Shown one piece after another: positions 3,541-53,497 of a DNA stretch of 64,000 bases. Both the position numbers and the translations under genes were made by a program. Each line of letters opens with the position of its first letter. The stretch's first letter is position 1. Source of the DNA: Eledone cirrhosa (lineage: Eukaryota); assembly GCA_964016885.1 (NCBI GenBank), contig OZ024740.1:435798001-435862000 (forward strand), read 5' to 3'. A model generated the notes under the pieces. The model did no database searches. It was not told the DNA's origin and was given only the letters and a program-made list of their open reading frames with translations.

Positions 3541-3692
3541 GAAACTTGAGGCAGATGAAAAATCCCTTAAGGCATTACCTAGCTATAGCGGAACTCCTCC
3601 AACCCATTCAAGAAAGGGGTCTGGTTCCAGCCTATTGTCAAATTCTTCACTAAACAGCTACAGTAGTAACCATATTGTTGAAGAAGAAACAG
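3541..3692 (+). CDS. EVI5: Internal coding exon of a probable EVI5-family Rab GTPase-activating protein (region just upstream of the TBC domain)
   Basis: Pyrimidine-rich acceptor (ttttcttcattttattctgttag) and donor AG|gtatgt flank an open frame KLEADEKSLKALPSYSGTPPTHSRKGSGSSLLSNSSLNSYSSNHIVEEET. From memory this resembles EVI5 'RLLETDSKSL..SRRNSGSSLVSSSS..SHLEED'. The identity is recalled, not searched. Confidence 0.7.
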
Positions 3693-12215: not shown

Positions 12216-12281
12216 TATTTTATCTGATGAAAGCGCACCATAATCTGCCTTGGTGGCCCTTGAAATATGTATAATGAAATA
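12216..12281 (+). ncRNA. Type I hammerhead ribozyme motif
   Basis: TATTTTAT-CTGATGA-[AAGCGCACCA..TGGTGGCCCTT]-GAAA-TATGTA-TA|ATGAAATA; helix I pairs. Confidence 0.7.
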
Positions 12282-16896: not shown

Positions 16897-19506
16897 CAAC
16901 TACTACCACCACCACTACCACCACCACTACCACCACCACTACCACTACCACCACCACTACAACTACCACCACCACTACCACCACCACTACCACTACCACC
17001 ACCACTACCACGACCACCACCACTACCACTACCACCACCACTACCACTACCACGACCACTACCACTACCACCACCACTACCACCACCACTACCACCACCA
17101 CTACCACTACCACGACCACTACCACTACCACCACCACTACCACCACCACTACCACTACCACCACCACTACCACTACCACCACCACTACCACCACCACTAC
17201 CACCACCACCACCACTACCACCACCACTACCACTACCACCACCACTACCACTACCACCACCACTACCACGACCACCACCACTACCACTACCACTACCACT
17301 ACCACTACCACTACCACCACCACTACCACGACCACCACCACTACCACCACCACTACCACTACCACCACTACCACGACCACCACCACTACCACTACCACTA
17401 CCACTACCACCACCACTACCACCACCACTACCACTACCACTACCACCACCACTACCACTACCACCACCACTACCACCACCACTACCACCACCACTACCAC
17501 TACCACCACCACTACCACTACCACCACCACTACCACTACCACCACCACTACCACCACCACTACCACCACCACTACCACCACCACTACCACCACCACTACC
17601 ACTACCACCACCACTACCACGACCACCACCACTACCACTACCACTACCACTACCACCACCACTACCACGACCACCACCACTACCACCACCACTACCACTA
17701 CACCACCACTACCACCACCACCACTACCACTACCACCACCACTACCACTACCACTACCACTACCACGACCACCACCACTACCACCACCACTACCACTACA
17801 CCACCACTACCACCACAACCACCACCACTACCACTACCACCACCACTACCACTACCACTACCACCACCACCACCACTACCACCACCACTACCACGACCAC
17901 CACCACTACCACCACCACCACCACTACCACTACCACCACCACCACCACCACTACCACTACCACCACCACTACCACTACCACTACCACTACCACCACCACC
18001 ACTACCACTACCACCACCACCACCACTACCACTACCACTACCACCACCACTACCACCACCACTACCACTACCACCACCACCACCACCACTACCACTACCA
18101 CCACCACTACCACTACCACTACCACTACCACCACCACCACCACCACTACCACTACCACCACCACTACCACTACCACTACCACCACCACTACCACCACCAC
18201 TACCACCACCACCACCACTACCACCACCACTACCACTACCACCACCACTACCACTACCACCACCACTACCACTACCACCACCACTACCACGACCACCACC
18301 ACTACCACTACCACTACCACTACCACGACCACCACCACTACCACCACCACTACCACTACCACCACTACCACGACCACCACCACTACCACTACCACTACCA
18401 CTACCACTACCACCACTACCACCACCACTACCACTACCACCACCACTACCACTACCACCACCACTACCACCACCACCACCACTACCACCACCACTACCAC
18501 TACCACCACCACTACCACTACCACCACCACTACCACTACCACCACCACTACCACTACCACCACCACTACCACCACCACTACCACCACCACCACCACTACC
18601 ACCACCACTACCACTACCACTACCACCACCACTACCACTACCACCACCACTACCACGACCACCACCACTACCACTACCACTACCACTACCACGACCGCCA
18701 CTACCACCACCACTACCACCACCACCACCACTACCACCACAACTACCACTACCACCACCACTACCACTACCACCACCACTACCACGACCACCACCACTAC
18801 CACTACCACTACCACTACCACGACCACCACCACTACCACCACCACTACCACCACCACCACCACTACCACCACCACTACCACTACCACCACCACTACCACT
18901 ACCACCACCACTACCACCACCACTACCACCACCACCATCACTACCACCACCACTACCACTACCACCACCACTACCACTACCACCACCACTACCACCACCA
19001 CTACCACCACCACTACCACTACCACCACCACTACCACCACCACCACCACTACCACCACCACTACCACTACCACCACCACTACCACTACCACCACCACTAC
19101 CACGACCACCACCACTACCACCACCACTACCACCACTACCACGACCACTACCACTACCACTACCACTACCACCACCACTACCACTACCACCACCACTACC
19201 ACTACCACCACCACTACCACTACCACCACCACTACCACTACCACCACTACCACGACCACTACCACTACCACTACCACTACCACTACCACCACCACTACCA
19301 CTACCACCACCACTACCACTACCACCACCACTACCACCACCACCACCACCAACACCACCACCACCATCACCACCATCACCACCACCACCAACAACACCAC
19401 CACCAACAACACCACCACCACCACCACCACCACCACCACCACCAACAACACCACCACCACCATCACCACCACCACCACCACCACCACCACCACCAACACC
19501 ATCAAC

Positions 19507-19538
<32 letters not shown>

Positions 19539-19802
19539 CAACAACACCACCACCAACACCACCACCACCACCACCACCACCACCACCACCACCACCAACA
19601 ACAACAACACCACCACCACCATCACCACCACCAACACCAACACCACCACCACCATCACCACCACCACCACCACCACCACCATCAACAACAACAACACCAC
19701 CACCAACAACACCACCACCACTACCACCACCACCACCAGCACCACCACCAACACCAACAACACCACCACCACCATCACCACACCATCACCACCACCACCA
19801 CC

Positions 19803-19834
<32 letters not shown>

Positions 19835-20267
19835 CACCACCACCACCACCAACAACACCACCACCACCACCACCACCACCACCACCATCAACACCACCAC
19901 CACCACCATCACCACCACCACCACCACCACCACCAACAACACCACCACCACCACCACCAACACCACCAACACCACCAACTCCATCAACACCACCACCACC
20001 ACCAACACCACCACCACCACCACCACCACCACCACCACCACCACCACCACCAACAACACCACCACCACCACCACCAACACCACCAACACCACCAACACCA
20101 TCAACACCACCATCACCACCACCAACAACACCACCACCACCACCACCACCATCAACACCACCACCATCACCACCAACACCAACACCAACACCACCACCAA
20201 CACCAACAACACCACCACCACCATCACCACCACCACCACCACCACCACCACCACCACCACCACCACC
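16897..20267. repeat. 3.4-kb (CCA/CTA/CAA)n trinucleotide array
   Basis: Direct inspection; source of the poly-P/T/H/V ORFs. Confidence 0.98.
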
Positions 20268-33396: not shown

Positions 33397-33435
<39 letters not shown>

Positions 33436-33438
<3 letters not shown>

Positions 33439-34724
33439 GGTGTTAAAGTTTGCTTGAAGCATTGTGAAATATGTAAAATATGAAGTTTAGAAAGCCACAA
33501 CAATGCAGATGGGAAATCTCGAGGTAGGAAGTGAGTGAGAAATAGGAGAAAAGTGAAAATTGAGAGAAACGAAAACAAAACAAAGGTAGAAGGGTTACCG
33601 TAGTGGAGATTTAATCCCAATATTTTGGGCTCACGCCCATCAACGGGGGGAAAGTTCCAAAAGGGGGGGAACAGGCTAAGCTGGAGAAAGTTGTATTGTC
33701 GTTAAAACATAGGAATGCCGTTATGGCGCTCCGAAGATGCCTCTCCACCAAACCCGATGAGTCAGATGGGACGTGTTCCCTCAGCAACTGCCCGATACGG
33801 GGGGCAGATTGCCTACGCACCTATGTTGTATATAAGATTCAATGCGATAAATGTAACAAGTTTTACATAGGTAGCACCATCCGACCCCTACATGTTCGTA
33901 TCAAGGAACATGTCAACACCAACGCATCTTCCTTCCGTAAACACATCCTTAAATGCGGAAACCCACAGGGCAGACCCTTGGTCACAGTCCTAGCGACTGA
34001 ACGCAGCATCGGATCCTTAAGGATAAAGGAAGCACTTGTTATTAAGAACCTCAGACCCCCACTTAACAACCGGGCTGAGAGAAATGAGCTGACATGGCTA
34101 ATCTAACCATAGTGACCAGTAACAGCCCCTACGGCCTACTATCTTTCACACACACGCACTTATATGTATACCCATACACATACACACACACACATCTATA
34201 TTTATACACGCACACATGTTTATACAACCTACCACCTTTCACACCCTTTGAATTCCAGCTTCTACGGCCCACTATCTTTCACACACGCACACTCACATAC
34301 ATACACACATACACATATACACACACAGTTACACACACATATATATTTACACACACATATTTTACGGCTTTCACACGCTAGCGCACCCTATTGATTTAAC
34401 CCAATTGGTCAGTAGCTTTTGCCACAGCCTATCACGCGCACGCGCATTCTTTCCCTCGTTTGAATTTTTTCCCCATAATGGCATTCCTATGTTTTAACGA
34501 CAATACAACTTTCTCCGGCTTAGCCTGTTCCCCCCCTTTTGGAACTTTCCCCCTGTTGATGGGCGTGAGCCCGAAATATTGGGATTAAATCTCCACTACG
34601 GTAACCCTTCTACCTTTGTTTTGTTTTCGGATTTTCGTTTCTCTCAATTTTCACTTTTCTCCTATTTCTCACTCACTTCCTACCTCGAGATTTCCCATCT
34701 GCATTGTTGTGGCTTTCTAAACTA
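33436..34724 (+). mobile_element. Penelope-like element (second family), heavily 5'-truncated, with inverted pseudo-LTRs
   Basis: GIY-YIG C-terminus in ORF 33696-34106 (VVYKIQCDKCNKFYIGSTIRPLHVRIKEH..RIKEALVI..PPLN); 33484-33726 is the reverse complement of ~34474-34723. Confidence 0.9.
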
Positions 34725-34757
34725 CATATATCATCATCATCATATATAAATATATAT

Positions 34758-38392: not shown

Positions 38393-38425
38393 TGGTGACC
38401 CCGGCATGATGTCGAACGCGCAACC
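38393..38425 (+). promoter_or_regulatory. Primer binding site complementary to the tRNA-Trp 3' end
   Basis: TGGTGACCCCG begins 2 nt after the 5' LTR; this is the complement of the recalled eukaryotic tRNA-Trp 3' end CGGGGUCACCA. Confidence 0.8.
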
Positions 38426-38450
38426 AGACACCACCTAAGAAAATACCAAC

Positions 38451-41400
38451 ATGGACATGCAACCAGCGACAGAGGCCGAGATTTCAGAGCTGCGGGCAAT
38501 GATAAGAGAGTGGGCTGGTCAAATTAAAGCCCTCTCAAATCAAGTAGAGAACTTGACCTTTCAAACACACCGGCGGCGCAGCAACAGTCGATCCAGGTCT
38601 TTTCACAGTCGAAGATCCAGTAGTCTCAGTCAAAATCGTGTGCCTGGCAACCTCTGCTGGTATCACACAAATTTTGGCGCACAGGCATCTAAGTGCAAAG
38701 CCCCATGCTCTTTCCGGAATGCCACCCAGGGCCTGGCAACGACGTTCACCCATGGTACTGAAAAGAAAAGTCGTCTATTTTTTATTAACGACCAGGCGAC
38801 AGGCATCCGTTACCTCGTGGATACAGGAGCCCAGGTTAGTGTTTTCCTGTTTCACTAATCTCGGGCAAAAGACACCCAACCCCGTCCTTTCTGCAGGCAG
38901 TGAACCAATCGTCAATTCCGACTTTCGGGGAGAAGACTCTGACCCTCAATTTAGGCCTGAGGCGGCGTTATCAATGGGTGTTTGTCGTGGCAGACCTGCC
39001 GACCCCTATCCTAGCAGCCGATTTTCTCCACCACTTCAACCTTCTGTGTGGATATGAAGAACCGGAGGCTTATCGACACCACCACAAACCTCACTGTGAG
39101 AGGTATATTTACCACACAATCCACAGTGAGCCCTGTAATTTGCCAGTCAGAGCCTTCGCGGTACAACGGCATTCTCCAGAAATACCCAAACATCACTCGC
39201 CCGGTATTTAAGATGGTCCCATTAAGCCTAGTGTCACGCACCACATCGAGACAAAGGGACCACCCACAGCTGCCCGACCAAGGAGACTGCCTCCAGACCG
39301 ATTGAGAATTGCCAAGCAGGAGTTCCAACACATGCTGGACCTCGGAATCATTCGCCCTTCCTCCAGCAACCGGTCTGCACCCCTACACCTTGTTCCTAAA
39401 AAAGACGAGAATGATTGGCGACCATGTGGGGATTATCGTGCACTTAACAATTCTACAGTGCCCGATAATTACCCTGTACCTCACCTGCACGATTTTTCTG
39501 CCTCTCTGCAAGGCACACGCATCTTTTCCAAGATAGATTTGGTGCGTGCATATAACCAGATACCTATGGAGCCTGCAGATATTCTGAAGACCGCAATCAC
39601 AACACCGTTCGGTTTATTTGAATTCCTGCGAATGCCGTTCAGTCTGCGCAATGCTGCACAAACTTTTCAGCGGTTTATTGACACCGTGTTACGCGATCTA
39701 TCCTTCGTATACGCGTATATTGACGACGTGCTGGTAACAAGTACTTCTGAGCAAGAACACGAGAAGCATTTAGATCTCCTTTTCCAACGTTTGGCTGAGT
39801 ACGGTATCATTATCAACCCCCAGCAAGTGCCTTCTCGGCGTTCCTTCACTGTCCTTTCTCGGGCACATCATCAACAAAGACGGCATTCGTCCACTTCCCG
39901 AGAAAGTAGAAGCTATCTGCAGTTTTCCCGCACCTACATCACTTCGGAAACTGCGTGAATTCCTCGGTCTGGTGAATTTTTAAAGGCGTTTTATCCCTCA
40001 TTGTTCCGACGCAGCCAGACTCCTCACGGACCTTTTTCGTAACTGGACTCGCAAAAACGAAGAGATCAGCCTAAATGAGGAAGAATTAACATCTTTTAAC
40101 CGCCTGAAGGAAATGTTGGCAAACGCTTCCATGCTCGTTTTCCCCAGGTCTGGCGCTCCTCTTTCGCTGCTAGTGGACGCATCAGACACAGGGGTTGGAG
40201 GCGTTTTACAACATGTCGACGGCGTGTGGCAACCCTTATCCTTCTTTTCTAAGCGGTTGCAACCGGCAGAAACGAAATACAGTACCATTGGCTGCGAACT
40301 CTTGGCAACCTATCTTTCGGTTAAGCATTTACGGCACATGCTCGAAGGATCAGATTTCGTGATCTACACGGACCATAAACCATTAGTTTATGCGTTCTGT
40401 ACTAAACCTGATCGACATTCACTGAGAGAACTCCGACACCTGGATTTTGTCTCCCAATATTCAACTGATATTTGGCATATCAAGGGATCAGACAACGTAG
40501 CAGCCGACGCCCTGTCCCGAATCCAGCTGAACGCAATACATGTGCATTCAGGCATCGACCTTCAACAGATTGCAGCTGACCAAGAGACTGACGAAGAGTT
40601 TATCAAGCTCCGAGATTCACCATCCCTCAAGTTTCAGTAAGTTCCCATTCCTTCTTCTCCGGGACAAATTTGGTGCGACCTTTCTACCGGTCATGAAAGA
40701 CCGTACGTACCACAGATGCATCGTCGACAAGTTTTTTCTGCTTTACACTGCTTGTCTCACCCTGGAATCTGGACAACACATAACTCATCTCTGCTCGTTT
40801 TGTGTGGACTAACATTAACAAGGACGTGCGCAACTGGTCCAGGAGCTGCATTGCCTGCCAGAAAGCCAAAGTCCACAGACACATAAAAACTCCACTCAGC
40901 ACATTCGCGCAACCTGAGCACGTTTTCATCATGTGCATATCGACATCGTCGGACCTCTACCACCATCACAGAACTACACGCACTTGCTCACCTGCATAGA
41001 TCGATTTTCTCGTTGGCCTGAGGATTTTCCCATAAATGATACCTCAGCGGAAACAGTCGCTAAAACTTTGGTTTTACACTGGGTATCACGTTTTGGCGCC
41101 CCAGCGAAGATAACAAGGGACAGAGGACGCCAATTTGACTCCCACCTCTTCAGGGAACTGACTCGCCTGTTAGGATGTAAACACATCCGCACGACAGCTT
41201 ATCACCCGCAAGCTAATGGTCTCGTGGAAAGATTCCATCGCCAATTGAAAGCTGCAATAAAAGCATATCCAGACAAGACACACTGGTTTGAATACCTGCC
41301 ACTCATCCTTCTGGGCATTCGATCCACCGTTAAGGAGGAATTCGGACACACACCTGCAGAATTACTGTACGGCACCACCCTGGTTCTACCTGGTCAGATG

Positions 41401-41790
41401 GTTGCTCCCATCTCTCCTCAGGATGTTCCAGACCCAGGATCATACGTACACCGTCTTCGACAATATATGTCTCACCTTGCTCCTGCAAGCACCCGTCAAC
41501 AGAACACGGCCACACACGTACCTTCAGACATTAAAGATTGGACACACGTTTTCGTTCGAAACGACACCATCTCAGCTCATCTTCGACCTCCATATTCTGG
41601 CCCTTATCGTGTTCTAAAAAAATATCCGAAATATTTTATTCTCGATCTAGATGGTAAACAGAATTCTGTCAGCGTGGACAGATTAAAAAAAGCCATCATG
41701 GATACTGTTACAGTCTCTACACCAGAAACTCCAACAGATTGCTGTCCCAGCGAGCCACATGTTTCATCTCCAGTCACGAGAAGGGGATGA
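38451..41790 (+). pseudogene. gag(C-terminus)-pol pseudogene (PR-RT-RH-IN)
   Basis: Fragments 38451-38858, 38900-, 39048-, 39302-, 40113-40640, 40802- and 40933-41790, separated by frameshifts and stops. Confidence 0.93.
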
Positions 41791-41986
41791 CGCGTCCATT
41801 GGCCCGCAAAGTTGGCACAATATGTGAATTACCGTTAACCTCAAGTGAGTTTCTTAATCATTCTTCGTGCAAAACATTTCCATTTTTCCTGTGTTTACTA
41901 TTTCCAGTTTCAAATACAATGAACTCTCTGCTTCAACAATTGCAATTTTTAGTGACCATGTGCTCATGTCACGAAGTACATTATTT

Positions 41987-49593: not shown

Positions 49594-51396
49594 TCATCAT
49601 CATCATCACCGTTTTACGTCCGTTCTTCCACGCTAGCATGGGTTAGACGGGTTGTCCTGTTGTGTGCAGTGTCTGGTCGGCTGACCATGCCTTGCTCATA
49701 CAGGAACTGATCTGGCTTGATTTCTACAGCTGGATGCCCTTCCTAACACCAACCTCATTTACAGTGAGTGCTGGGTGCTTTTTCGTGGCGCCTACACGTC
49801 CACTTTACAGTGTGGGCTGGGTGCTTTTTTGCCGTGGCACCTCCACGACCACCTTGCGGTGGGGGGGGGGGGCATATTGTTTATATGCTTCAGCATGTAC
49901 CCATGGGAGGTCGGGTACTCTGTATTACTGCGTGACGCCAGAAGTCACGGTCGTGTGTCATTGTCTTTGAGAGGTGTAGTTGGGTAAGGTCGGCTTTTAT
50001 CACCTCATCCCAGGTCATCTTGGGTCTCCCCACTCCGCGGTTTCCATCAACTTCTAGTGCTCTGCACCTTTTTATGCAGCTGTCATCCTTCATACGCATC
50101 ACGTCTTTACCAGCGCAACCGCCTCTCCTGCACACAGCATTTGATTCCTCTTATGCTCAGTCTCTCTCTCAATTCATTTATGCTTTGTCTTTCACGTATA
50201 TTACTGTTACACATCCATCGGAGCATGCAGGCTTCGTTTCTCTCTAATCTACGTAAGTCTTCCACCTTCAGCGCCCAGGTCTCACTACCATGCAACATCG
50301 CTGTTCGGATACACACATCATACAGTCTGCCTTTCATTCTGAGGGAGAAGCCTTTTGCAGCTAGCAGTGGTAGTAGTTCCCTAAACTTCTTCCATCCCGT
50401 TCTTACCCTAGTTATTGTACTTTCTGAACACCCACCTCCGTTGCTAATTCAGTCACCTAGGTAGCAGAAGCTGTCTACTGTTTCTACAGGGCCCTCCCAG
50501 AGATTGGTGGTACTTGTTTCCTGTGGCTGTTTGCTGCTTGCTGTTTCAGCACAGCTGCTGCATGTGAATCCTACATTCTTAATTAAGCTTCCTGAGATCC
50601 CGCTACATCTCTTGTGTACCCATTGTTTGCATTTGAGGCAGAGAATGGAGTTCCTACCTACACCTTTCCTACATACTGAGCAAGGCCATTTCCCTGAGGG
50701 GATCTGGGTTCTGTTTTCTCATCTACTTACAAGGACCTTAGTCTTTGTCATGTTGACTTTGAGACCCTTTCTTTCTAGTCCCTGCTTCCAGGTTTGGAAT
50801 TTATTCTCTAGTTCTACCATAGATTCAGCTATGAGTGCGAGGTCATCAGCATACAGGAGTTCCCATGGGCATCCGGTCTTAAACTCCTCCGTTATTGCCT
50901 GCAGGACTATGATGAACAGGAGAGGGCTAAGAACAGAGCTCTGGTGGACCCCAACCTGTACGCTAAATTCCTCGCTATACTCATTGCTAATCCTAACTTT
51001 GCTGACTGCTCCCCTATACATGGCTTGTACCGCTTTCACAAGCCATTCATCTACTCCTAGTTTTCTAAGAGCCCACCAGATTACTGCACGTGGAACTCTG
51101 TCAAAGGCTTTCTCGAGATCGACAAATGCCAGGTAGAGTGGCTTACTTTTAGCTAGGTACTTTTCCTGTAACTGCCTCACAAGGAAGAGGGCATCAGTGG
51201 TGCCTCTTTCTGGTACAAACCCAAATTGCATCTCGTCTATATTCACCCGGTCCCTAATCAGCTGTGCTATAACTCTTTCTGTTACTTTCATGACCTGGTC
51301 CATCAGCTTTATACCTCTATAGTTTCCTCTATCGAGTGCATCACCTTTACCTTTGTAGCAGTTGACAATGATGCTACTGCACCAATCTTTTGGAAC
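49591..51396 (-). mobile_element. RTE subfamily B, 5'-truncated, with stops and a frameshift
   Basis: ORF pieces 51396-50719, 50337-50107 and ~50105-49890; 3' UTR and (GAT)n. Confidence 0.95.
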
Positions 51397-51621
51397 CTCC
51401 AGAACGCACTGCTGCCCACACCAAGAACATTCAGTGCCGCCTCGGCCGCGTCCGACCAGCTGCCACAAGCTCCAATTGGACAACCGTGCACAAAAAGATA
51501 TATATATATATATATATTAAATATATATATATATATATATATTAAATATATATATATATATATATTTAATATATATATATTTAATATATATATATATATA
51601 TATATTAAATATATATTTATA

Positions 51622-53094
51622 TTGTCATTCTCGATAAAAGCACTGGATATGTAGTCCTGATGATTTCTAACAAGAATGAAACGCGTAGATTACTTCCCTT
51701 GCTTTTATCGAGAATCTAATTGTAATACGTGACGTATTCTATTCTATAGCGATTAGGTCTTCAAAATGTTTATTATAAACATACAGAATATTTTCGAATA
51801 TTCTATGTCTATATTCACATATATATCGCTATTTCAGAGCATTTATTCCAATTTCTAATTTCTGCCGGACCGGCAACCGCTCTTTCAAACCAGTTCCTGT
51901 ACACAGCTAAGTATTCTATAAGTCTCTAGCTGTGTCATTCTCGATAAAAGCACTGGATATGTAGTCCTGATGATTTCTAACAAGAATGAAACGCGTAGAT
52001 TACTTCCCTTGCTTTTATCGAGAATCTAATTGTAATACGTGACGTATTCTATTCTATAGCGATTAGGTCTTCAAAATGTTTATTATAAACATACAGAATA
52101 TTTTCGAATATTCTATGTCTATATTCACATATATATCGCTATTTCAGAGCATTTATTCCAATTTCTAATTTCTGCCGGACCGGCAACCGCTCTTTCAAAC
52201 CAGTTCCTGTACACAGCTAAGTATTCTATAAGTCTCTAGCTGTGTCATTCTCGATAAAAGCACTGGATATGTAGTCCTGATGATTTCTAACAAGAATGAA
52301 ACGCGTAGATTACTTCCCTTGCTTTTATCGAGAATCTAATTGTAATACGTGACGTATTCTATTCTATAGCGATTAGGTCTTCAAAATGTTTATTATAAAC
52401 ATACAGAATATTTTCGAATATTCTATGTCTATATTCACATATATATCGCTATTTCAGAGCATTTATTCCAATTTCTAATTTCTGCCGGACCGGCAACCGC
52501 TCTTTCAAACCAGTTCCTGTACACAGCTAAGTATTCTATAAGTCTCTAGCTGTGTCATTCTCGATAAAAGCACTGGATATGTAGTCCTGATGATTTCTAA
52601 CAAGAATGAAACGCGTAGATTACTTCCCTTGCTTTTATCGAGAATCTAATTGTAATACGTGACGTATTCTATTCTATAGCGATTAGGTCTTCAAAATGTT
52701 TATTATAAACATACAGAATATTTTCGAATATTCTATGTCTATATTCACATATATATCGCTATTTCAGAGCATTTATTCCAATTTCTAATTTCTGCCGGAC
52801 CGGCAACCGCTCTTTCAAACCAGTTCCTGTACACAGCTAAGTATTCTATAAGTCTCTAGCTGTGTCATTCTCGATAAAAGCACTGGATATGTAGTCCTGA
52901 TGATTTCTAACAAGAATGAAACGCGTAGATTACTTCCCTTGCTTTTATCGAGAATCTAATTGTAATACGTGACGTATTCTATTCTATAGCGATTAGGTCT
53001 TCAAAATGTTTATTATAAACATACAGAATATTTTCGAATATTCTATGTCTATATTCACATATATATCGCTATTTCAGAGCATTTATTCCAATTT
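51622..53094 (+). mobile_element. Tandem array of 310-bp hammerhead-containing units (4.75 copies); candidate non-LTR retrozyme
   Basis: TCATTCTCGATAAAAG starts at 51625, 51935, 52245, 52555 and 52865; no differences seen between units; one HHR per unit; no ORF; flanked by (TA)n. Confidence 0.85.
51627..51715 (+). ncRNA. Type I hammerhead ribozyme (unit 1; repeated every 310 bp, cores at 51657, 51967, 52277, 52587, 52897)
   Basis: ATTCTCGATAAAAGCA..GTAGTC-CTGATGA-T-TTCT(AACA)AGAA-T-GAAA-CGCG-TA|GATTAC..TGCTTTTATCGAGAAT; predicted cleavage after GUA at 51687. Confidence 0.82.
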
Positions 53095-53497
53095 ATATAT
53101 ATATATATATATTAAATATATATATATATATATATTAAATATATATATATATATTAAATATATATATATATATATATATTAAATATATATATATATATAT
53201 ATTAAATATATATATATATATATATTAAATATATATATATATATATATTAAATATATATATATATATATTTATTAAATATATATATATATATTTAATATA
53301 TATATATATATATATTTAATATATATATATTTAATATATATATATATATATATATTAAATATATATATATATATATTTAATATATATATATTTAATATAT
53401 ATATATATATATATTTAATATATATATATTTAATATATATATATATATATATTTAATATATATATATATATATATTTAATATATATATATATATATA
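53095..53497. repeat. (TA)n tract punctuated by TTAAA/TTTAA
   Basis: Direct inspection; similar tracts separate most elements between 20.8 and 54.2 kb. Confidence 0.95.

Follow-up and report, generated by a model that had tools for sequence, protein, structure and literature searches.

The array at positions 51623-53094 of the analyzed stretch of Eledone cirrhosa DNA (the window, 64,000 nucleotides) is probably a young non-LTR retrozyme insertion, which a Penelope-type enzyme would have pasted from a single, likely circular RNA copied repeatedly. The array comprises 4.75 units of 310 bp on the + strand, with 0 mismatches between units in the assembly sequence, and the longest stop-to-stop frame within a unit is 59 aa. 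The earlier note's description of identical, ORF-less, head-to-tail 310-bp units in (TA)n thus holds as it stood. To judge from the sequence data assembled below, the 310-bp family is a real, young non-LTR retrozyme with a predicted ribozyme. The landmarks of the insertion and its host gene are the following, with unit position 1 set at window position 51623.

3541-3692, + strand: exon of the EVI5-like host gene, best match 96% to an EVI5-like protein named from Octopus sinensis
51498-51622, no strand assigned: left (TA)n target tract, read from the sequence
51623-53094, + strand: single-arm retrozyme insertion, which starts at unit position 1 and stops at unit position 232, the long, tail-bearing end class A
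53058-53094, + strand: Penelope-type tail, the ~35-37 nt between the fixed 3' end sites 195-204 and 230-237
53095-53497, no strand assigned: right (TA)n target tract, read from the sequence

The next EVI5-like exon lies ~44 kb past the window end. Given this position and the + strand exon at 3541-3692, the array lies in sense orientation within an EVI5-like intron of ~105 kb, in agreement with the earlier note. As most insertions of the family carry both orientations, any intronic copy places a sense predicted hammerhead in the host pre-mRNA. The host gene itself is split in the assembly, with residues 1-368 at C1:435.68-436.15 Mb (+) and residues 405-832 at C1:434.87-434.93 Mb (-); this separation of ~0.9 Mb reflects either an inversion or a misassembly.

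Each unit contains the elements of a type I hammerhead, which were annotated as follows.

51651-51693, + strand: type I hammerhead motif 1, predicted cut after 51687
51651-51656 with 51688-51693, + strand: helix I of motif 1, GTAGTC/GATTAC, with one G.U
51657-51663 and 51678-51682 (GAAAC), + strand: core of motif 1, CUGAUGA...GAAA
51664-51677, + strand: helix II of motif 1, U.U at the base
Within motif 1, + strand: helix III, palindromic ACGCGT; cleavage site GUA
51627-51715 (arms 51627-51642 and 51700-51715), + strand: 16-bp helix enclosing the hammerhead, by sequence pairing
51961-52003, + strand: hammerhead copy 2, predicted cut after 51997
52271-52313, + strand: hammerhead copy 3
52581-52623, + strand: hammerhead copy 4
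52891-52933, + strand: hammerhead copy 5

In unit numbering, helix I occupies positions 29-34/66-71, the core 35-41, helix II 42-55 and GAAAC 56-60, and the predicted cut falls after 65. Helix I, core, helix II, ACGCGT and the GUA site had all been claimed in the earlier note, together with cuts after 51687 and 51997, the 16-bp helix and four further hairpins; all of these features are present in the sequence, and the cut positions agree with the predicted site. In other copies of the family, the 16-bp helix around the hammerhead carries recurrent array-wide A>G changes, and in a sister family its pairing is retained via compensatory changes.

A hammerhead descriptor matches the + strand of the unit only, and 3 of 5000 dinucleotide shuffles match as well. 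An Rfam search returned a hammerhead match only below the gathering threshold (HH9, 19.2 bits vs 52, E=0.06), and the sole result at that threshold was a weak tRNA-like match. Both strands fold better than shuffled sequences (z of -3.76 for antisense and -2.90 for sense); because the antisense strand folds at least as well as the sense one, fold stability cannot tell the strand. The minimum-energy fold of the monomer mispairs part of the hammerhead core. The U.U mismatch at the base of helix II, earlier listed as a caveat, can be dropped, since the same mismatch occurs in the axolotl HHR_Amex2, a ribozyme whose weak cleavage on its own improves in the dimeric form (PMC7229834), and one sub-lineage of the present family converts it to A-U. 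Both a U3-A8 hammerhead core and a palindromic helix III acting as a dimer are known (PMC4209133). Nevertheless, a predicted hammerhead does not imply an active ribozyme, as 8 of 9 predicted Xenopus retrozyme dimers showed no cleavage (bioRxiv 10.64898/2026.07.22.740005).

In the copies compared, changes in the hammerhead follow a purifying pattern and covary between families. At the 13 invariant core positions, 0 changes are fixed array-wide vs 5 confined to single units. Fixed changes inside the motif fall at N7 and in loop II, give G.U wobbles, turn the U.U into A-U, produce a helix I bulge and convert the cleavage site from GUA to GUU. A second line of evidence is provided by the sister family, which its sequence indicates is retrozyme-like and older than the 310-bp family. 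A 32-mer of this family has 1,427 matches in the genome, corresponding to at least that many copies. Its unit of 316-320 bp is collinear with the 310-bp unit, the arms are alike, the ends are similar, and the hammerhead is at the equivalent place, but its helix III is longer and its core mostly U3-A8. The mapped copies are listed below.

L206-L235, L108 and L153 (e.g., L213:1200-1517): sister family loci

Between the two families, both partners differ in 13 of the 24 named pairs, one case being C3-G8 to U3-A8, and 96% of alignment cells are paired vs 31-48% with partners slid. The alignment, in which pairs were placed by hand, has 23 rows (10 from the young family and 13 of the 17 sister motifs listed) that represent two or three lineages rather than 23 independent observations.

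The family is dispersed genome-wide, as the earlier note had anticipated. Exact matches to a 38-base pattern from the core number 4,200 in the genome vs 0 for the reversed-pattern control, and further haplotypes add to this number. The two end motifs have 637 and 589 forward matches genome-wide (totals use forward counts, the reverse counts being doubled by a gap in the pattern). Among the end motifs listed for the first 158.5 Mb of C1, 68 are of class A and 67 of class B, and the 68 A ends correspond to ~90 insertions. By extrapolation from this segment, we estimate the family at 1,500 or more insertions, roughly 1,700, across the 3.0-Gb genome.

Insertion anatomy was analyzed in 92 fetched regions (90 after merging) and in the window, with the unit mapped on each. 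The arms consist of tandem units only, abut (TA)n, and have no layout of LTR, primer-binding site or polypurine tract. Most insertions have two arms: 79 two-arm blocks were observed vs 16 that are single-arm or cut by a gap, and the window array, a single A-ended arm, falls in the single-arm minority. Two-arm insertions are divergent, so that the 3' ends face outward and the inner 5' ends meet. The outer ends form two classes ~35 nt apart, B at unit positions 195-204 and A at 230-237; among 171 outer ends, 58 are at 230, 44 at 195, 30 at 204 and 11 at 232. The pairing of the classes is strict. All 45 divergent neighbors among the end motifs listed for the first 158.5 Mb of C1 are A+B, with 0 A+A or B+B, which independent pairing would make half of the total. 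The mapped blocks give the same picture (75 of 79 are A+B, and the other four are cut by a region edge or an internal fold-back); about half of these two-arm loci were chosen for having both ends, and loci chosen by internal patterns agree.

The flanks and inner ends complete this description. TA-rich flanks, by a 12-nt score, border 156 of the 171 outer ends, and most of the others are ends called short because of a variant; most loci were picked with TA-containing patterns, and those picked by the core agree. Target duplications are unreadable within (TA)n. Of the 79 junctions between arms, 50 show overlapping or abutting arms, another 28 carry no more than 33 additional bases, and in the last, at L036:2599-2870, a captured foreign stretch of 272 bases separates the arms. 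The inner ends are spread nearly uniformly (p=0.08), with 2 of 158 within 3 nt of the predicted cut and 3.6 expected. The lengths of 155 arms fit an exponential distribution with a mean of 4.9 and a maximum of 45 units. The permuted ends expected in the earlier note were therefore found in part, at the scattered inner 5' ends; the outer 3' ends occupy two fixed sites, mostly on two inverted arms.

This anatomy strongly indicates Penelope-type mobilization. Penelope-like insertions have as their signature a tail of 30-40 bp on one side, together with a 5'-truncated copy in inverted orientation, and (TA)n targets are known for several Penelope-like clades (PMC8557442). In vitro, a Poseidon protein introduces nicks into both strands of AT-rich DNA, extends them and uses two internal RNA start sites with a spacing equal to the tail (PMC11167929). 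In the same genome, a coding family with reverse transcriptase (RT) and GIY-YIG domains also ends within (TA)n in two classes, separated by 39-41 nt. Its ends at 20 loci comprise 11 long, 9 short and one odd, and long and short ends are combined in all three loci that show both. One insertion outside a microsatellite has a target duplication of 11-14 bp.

The link to Penelope-like elements follows from the tail and the inverted arms, not from proximity. The earlier note had placed the array next to its likely helper class, which is loose: the Penelope-like pieces are 17-22 kb away, and their families are abundant genome-wide. Since both families are abundant and have long open frames elsewhere, the closeness of these pieces is uninformative. 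[quoted passage not shown] The other, at 33,435-34,730, comes from a second family, which has long open frames elsewhere; this piece is truncated, has two arms and carries a tail of ~40 nt. The nearest coding neighbor of the array is an RT fragment at 50722-51516.

A comparison of the unit with these two coding Penelope-like families (30 and 20 loci) revealed no shared sequence beyond TA-rich chance matches. An RT plus GIY-YIG ORF of an autonomous Penelope-like element is absent from the unit and from between the outer ends at the fetched loci. With a dispersed unit that is no coding element's terminal repeat at the loci examined, and a hammerhead marked by purifying change and covariation, the retrozyme reading of the earlier note is supported. 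A third family shares only helix II and the core with the 310-bp unit. Its hammerhead-like motif, observed at L066, L083, L096, L155 and L159, has a nearly equal helix II with the U.U base and adjoins, on a reading by eye, the 3' end of an apparent endonuclease frame, so this family is a possible relative or helper. A flank that resembled the 3' end of a helper was also considered and proved to be another non-coding repeat.

A mostly monomeric circular template is likely, to judge from the variation among and within insertions. In 76 insertions with at least three units, there are 31 array-wide haplotypes, 23 of them seen once. Both arms share a haplotype in 46 of 48 insertions, vs 0.12 by chance, and private changes are fixed in all units of both arms (e.g., 17/17, 22/22 and 24/24 units). 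The scattered inner ends and the multi-lap arms of up to 45 units rule out a cut linear monomer as the template. Over 62,122 lap-matched bases, 71 positions are discordant between arms; on the other hand, 3 of 75 two-arm insertions (L061, L085 and L099) have, at 8 positions in all, a non-fixed variant that is common to both arms in one lap only. A monomer circle does not predict such variants, which thus count against a pure form of this model. Together with block duplications and mosaics, they suggest that some templates may be multimers.

Repeated blocks and mosaics are observed in the long arrays L034, L036, L105, L073 and L253, and DNA-level turnover, as read from these patterns, also shapes array length and homogeneity. 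In L099, the haplotype switches in both arms after the two outermost laps; a multimer template, a template switch and repair are options for the mosaics in L099, L073 and L253. A 340-nt contig from 3 of 4 sequencing runs was set aside as evidence for a circle, as it fits a closed 310-nt loop and tandem DNA gives it equally.

The changes fixed across arrays are enriched in A>G. Among 28 array-wide origins, 13 are of this type, compared with 5 among 82 changes seen in single units (p=5e-6); counted by site, it accounts for 8 of 22 array-wide sites (p=8e-4). T>C is found in 3 array-wide vs 13 single-unit cases; the A>G and T>C tallies leave out four backbone sites. Most array-wide A>G sites lie in stable helices. 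The change at unit position 31 recurs on four backbones and that at position 85 on at least four. As counts of units rather than of insertions, 85G is present in 791 units, listed mostly as whole arrays spanning both arms, and the wobble-keeping C>T at position 87, a CpG two bases from 85, in 7 lone units; this control is one site and is more destabilizing than A>G.

Heavy A-to-I editing in coleoid cephalopods is established, and editing is a plausible source of the A>G marks, in our view the better bet on the observed pattern. If a single molecule is edited and then copied lap after lap, a whole-array change is explained, and selection for G.U over A.C may account for part of the excess. A more far-reaching version can be offered tentatively, as slightly less probable than not: a Penelope-type enzyme pair would, as recorded in more than a thousand insertions, prime both sides of one break and circle one ribozyme-made RNA, A-to-I edits would become heritable array-wide, and editing would drive the germline evolution of a viroid-like circle.

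The following scenario can be proposed. Transcripts of tandem units would be cleaved at GUA, probably by hammerheads that dimerize via the ACGCGU palindrome, and the monomers would be ligated to 310-nt circles, some of them A-to-I edited in the long helices. A Penelope-type enzyme would then nick both strands of a (TA)n tract, with cDNA primed from each nick and reverse transcription beginning at two internal sites, which we infer to be unit positions ~195-204 and ~230-237. Each polymerase would circle the template a random number of times, passing through the ribozyme site, and the two cDNA ends would be joined with short overlaps. The window copy would have retained only the long-end arm, and long arrays would later be reshuffled also at the DNA level.

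The main alternative retains the element and the Penelope-type enzyme and replaces the template by an uncut linear multimer or a multimeric circle, homogeneity being due to young source arrays, gene conversion and unequal crossover. Such a template would account for the lap-matched shared variants in 3 of 75 insertions and for the block duplications within long arrays; the monomer hammerhead is weak, with its U.U and a 2-bp helix III, and for PAc, a Penelope-like element, the hammerhead is dispensable for in vitro insertion and the main substrate is uncut RNA (PMC11167929). However, read-through of a source array should often carry its junction or flank, and a long foreign insert (the 272 bp mentioned above) is found at only 1 of 79 junctions. 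Linear copying can neither lengthen arrays nor spread a private change to every unit in the two arms, arm-discordant positions outnumber shared ones (71 vs 8), and the 5' ends do not pile up at a start site. We consider this alternative unlikely as the general explanation, while giving it more weight than any other rival of the mostly monomeric circle.

A satellite that multiplies as DNA (through extrachromosomal circles, rolling-circle replication of DNA or Helitron-like copying) and carries the hammerhead as a passenger is very improbable and, on the sequence comparisons made, largely refuted. Arrays of up to 45 units with DNA-level turnover would suit it, and a one-unit circular DNA would likewise yield homogeneous arrays, but it leaves unexplained why the outer ends fall at two fixed sites 35 nt from each other and pair strictly as A+B, with the 3' ends facing outward, why the layout in the coding Penelope-like family matches, and why there are a strand-biased A>G excess and a conserved core. 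Still less credible is the notion that the array is an assembly artefact or merely the terminal repeat of a coding Penelope-like element. The window units are indeed 100% identical and inside a microsatellite, and the assembly has the 3' half of the EVI5-like gene inverted ~0.9 Mb off; against an artefact, equal anatomy and locus-specific haplotypes are found at ~90 fetched loci. As to a terminal repeat, the arms occupy the whole span between the outer ends at the fetched loci, so that a coding body has no space, and the two coding families have no similarity to the unit. At the loci examined, the unit is thus dispersed and is not a coding element's terminal repeat, so neither this nor confinement to a single locus, both raised in the earlier note as grounds for rejection, was what we found.

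The window contains several other repeats. Six hammerhead-like motifs of another family, at positions 12224, 21104, 21208, 43452, 44292 and 44992, have a long helix II and a TATATATA helix III, and some form inverted pairs. A coding region of the LTR-retrotransposon type (RT, RNase H and integrase), broken into several frames, spans 38,400-41,800, and a 3.4-kb (ACCACC)n array with extreme strand skew occupies 16,905-20,267.

The family resembles the metazoan non-LTR retrozymes described in PMC7229834 (Cervera and de la Pena 2020) in its non-coding tandem unit (150-450 bp in that study), low GC, thousands of copies, one type I hammerhead per unit, U.U at the base of helix II and a predicted self-paired RNA; the axolotl Rtz353/HHR_Amex2 is the closest in ribozyme form. 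Those retrozymes are accompanied by expression and cleavage data, whereas the window family is described here from its genomic sequence. The inverted two-arm insertions, the fixed ends of the tail and the preference for (TA)n targets in the window family are not described in the available part of that paper, where the link of retrozymes to Penelope rests on co-occurrence. Li, Clavereau and Pollet (2026, bioRxiv 10.64898/2026.07.22.740005) likewise proposed Penelope-like mobilization of non-LTR retrozymes, and their amphibian elements have a mean unit of ~316 bp and many intronic copies. They argue from co-distribution and from homology of terminal repeats in vertebrates and favor local tandem growth; here, in contrast, the evidence is insertion anatomy, with no homologous coding element among the families compared.

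With Penelope-like elements, including PAc (PMC8557442, PMC11167929), the family shares a 30-40-nt tail, an inverted 5'-truncated arm, (TA)n targets, two adjacent internal initiation sites and priming of both strands; it differs in having no ORF and many 310-nt laps per arm. A partial precedent is provided by Chlamys MRC1, with multicopy head-to-tail non-autonomous elements, from a clade mostly devoid of hammerheads. A search that covered titles and the beginnings of abstracts, mostly of papers outside subscription journals, turned up neither cephalopod retrozymes nor retrozyme insertions with two arms.

In the literature so far, as represented by the accessible parts of PMC7229834, PMC7761336 and bioRxiv 10.64898/2026.07.22.740005, the retrozyme-Penelope link consists of co-occurrence and terminal-repeat homology, with the mechanism open, and the write-back of animal retrozymes from RNA circles by Penelope-like enzymes has been a proposal. 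The young family analyzed here gives the footprint of this step directly. As two start sites, the target and a 310-nt template can be named, the write-back becomes accessible to reconstitution in vitro. Should the A>G marks be due to editing, they would link RNA editing to heritable changes in the DNA of heavily editing animals.
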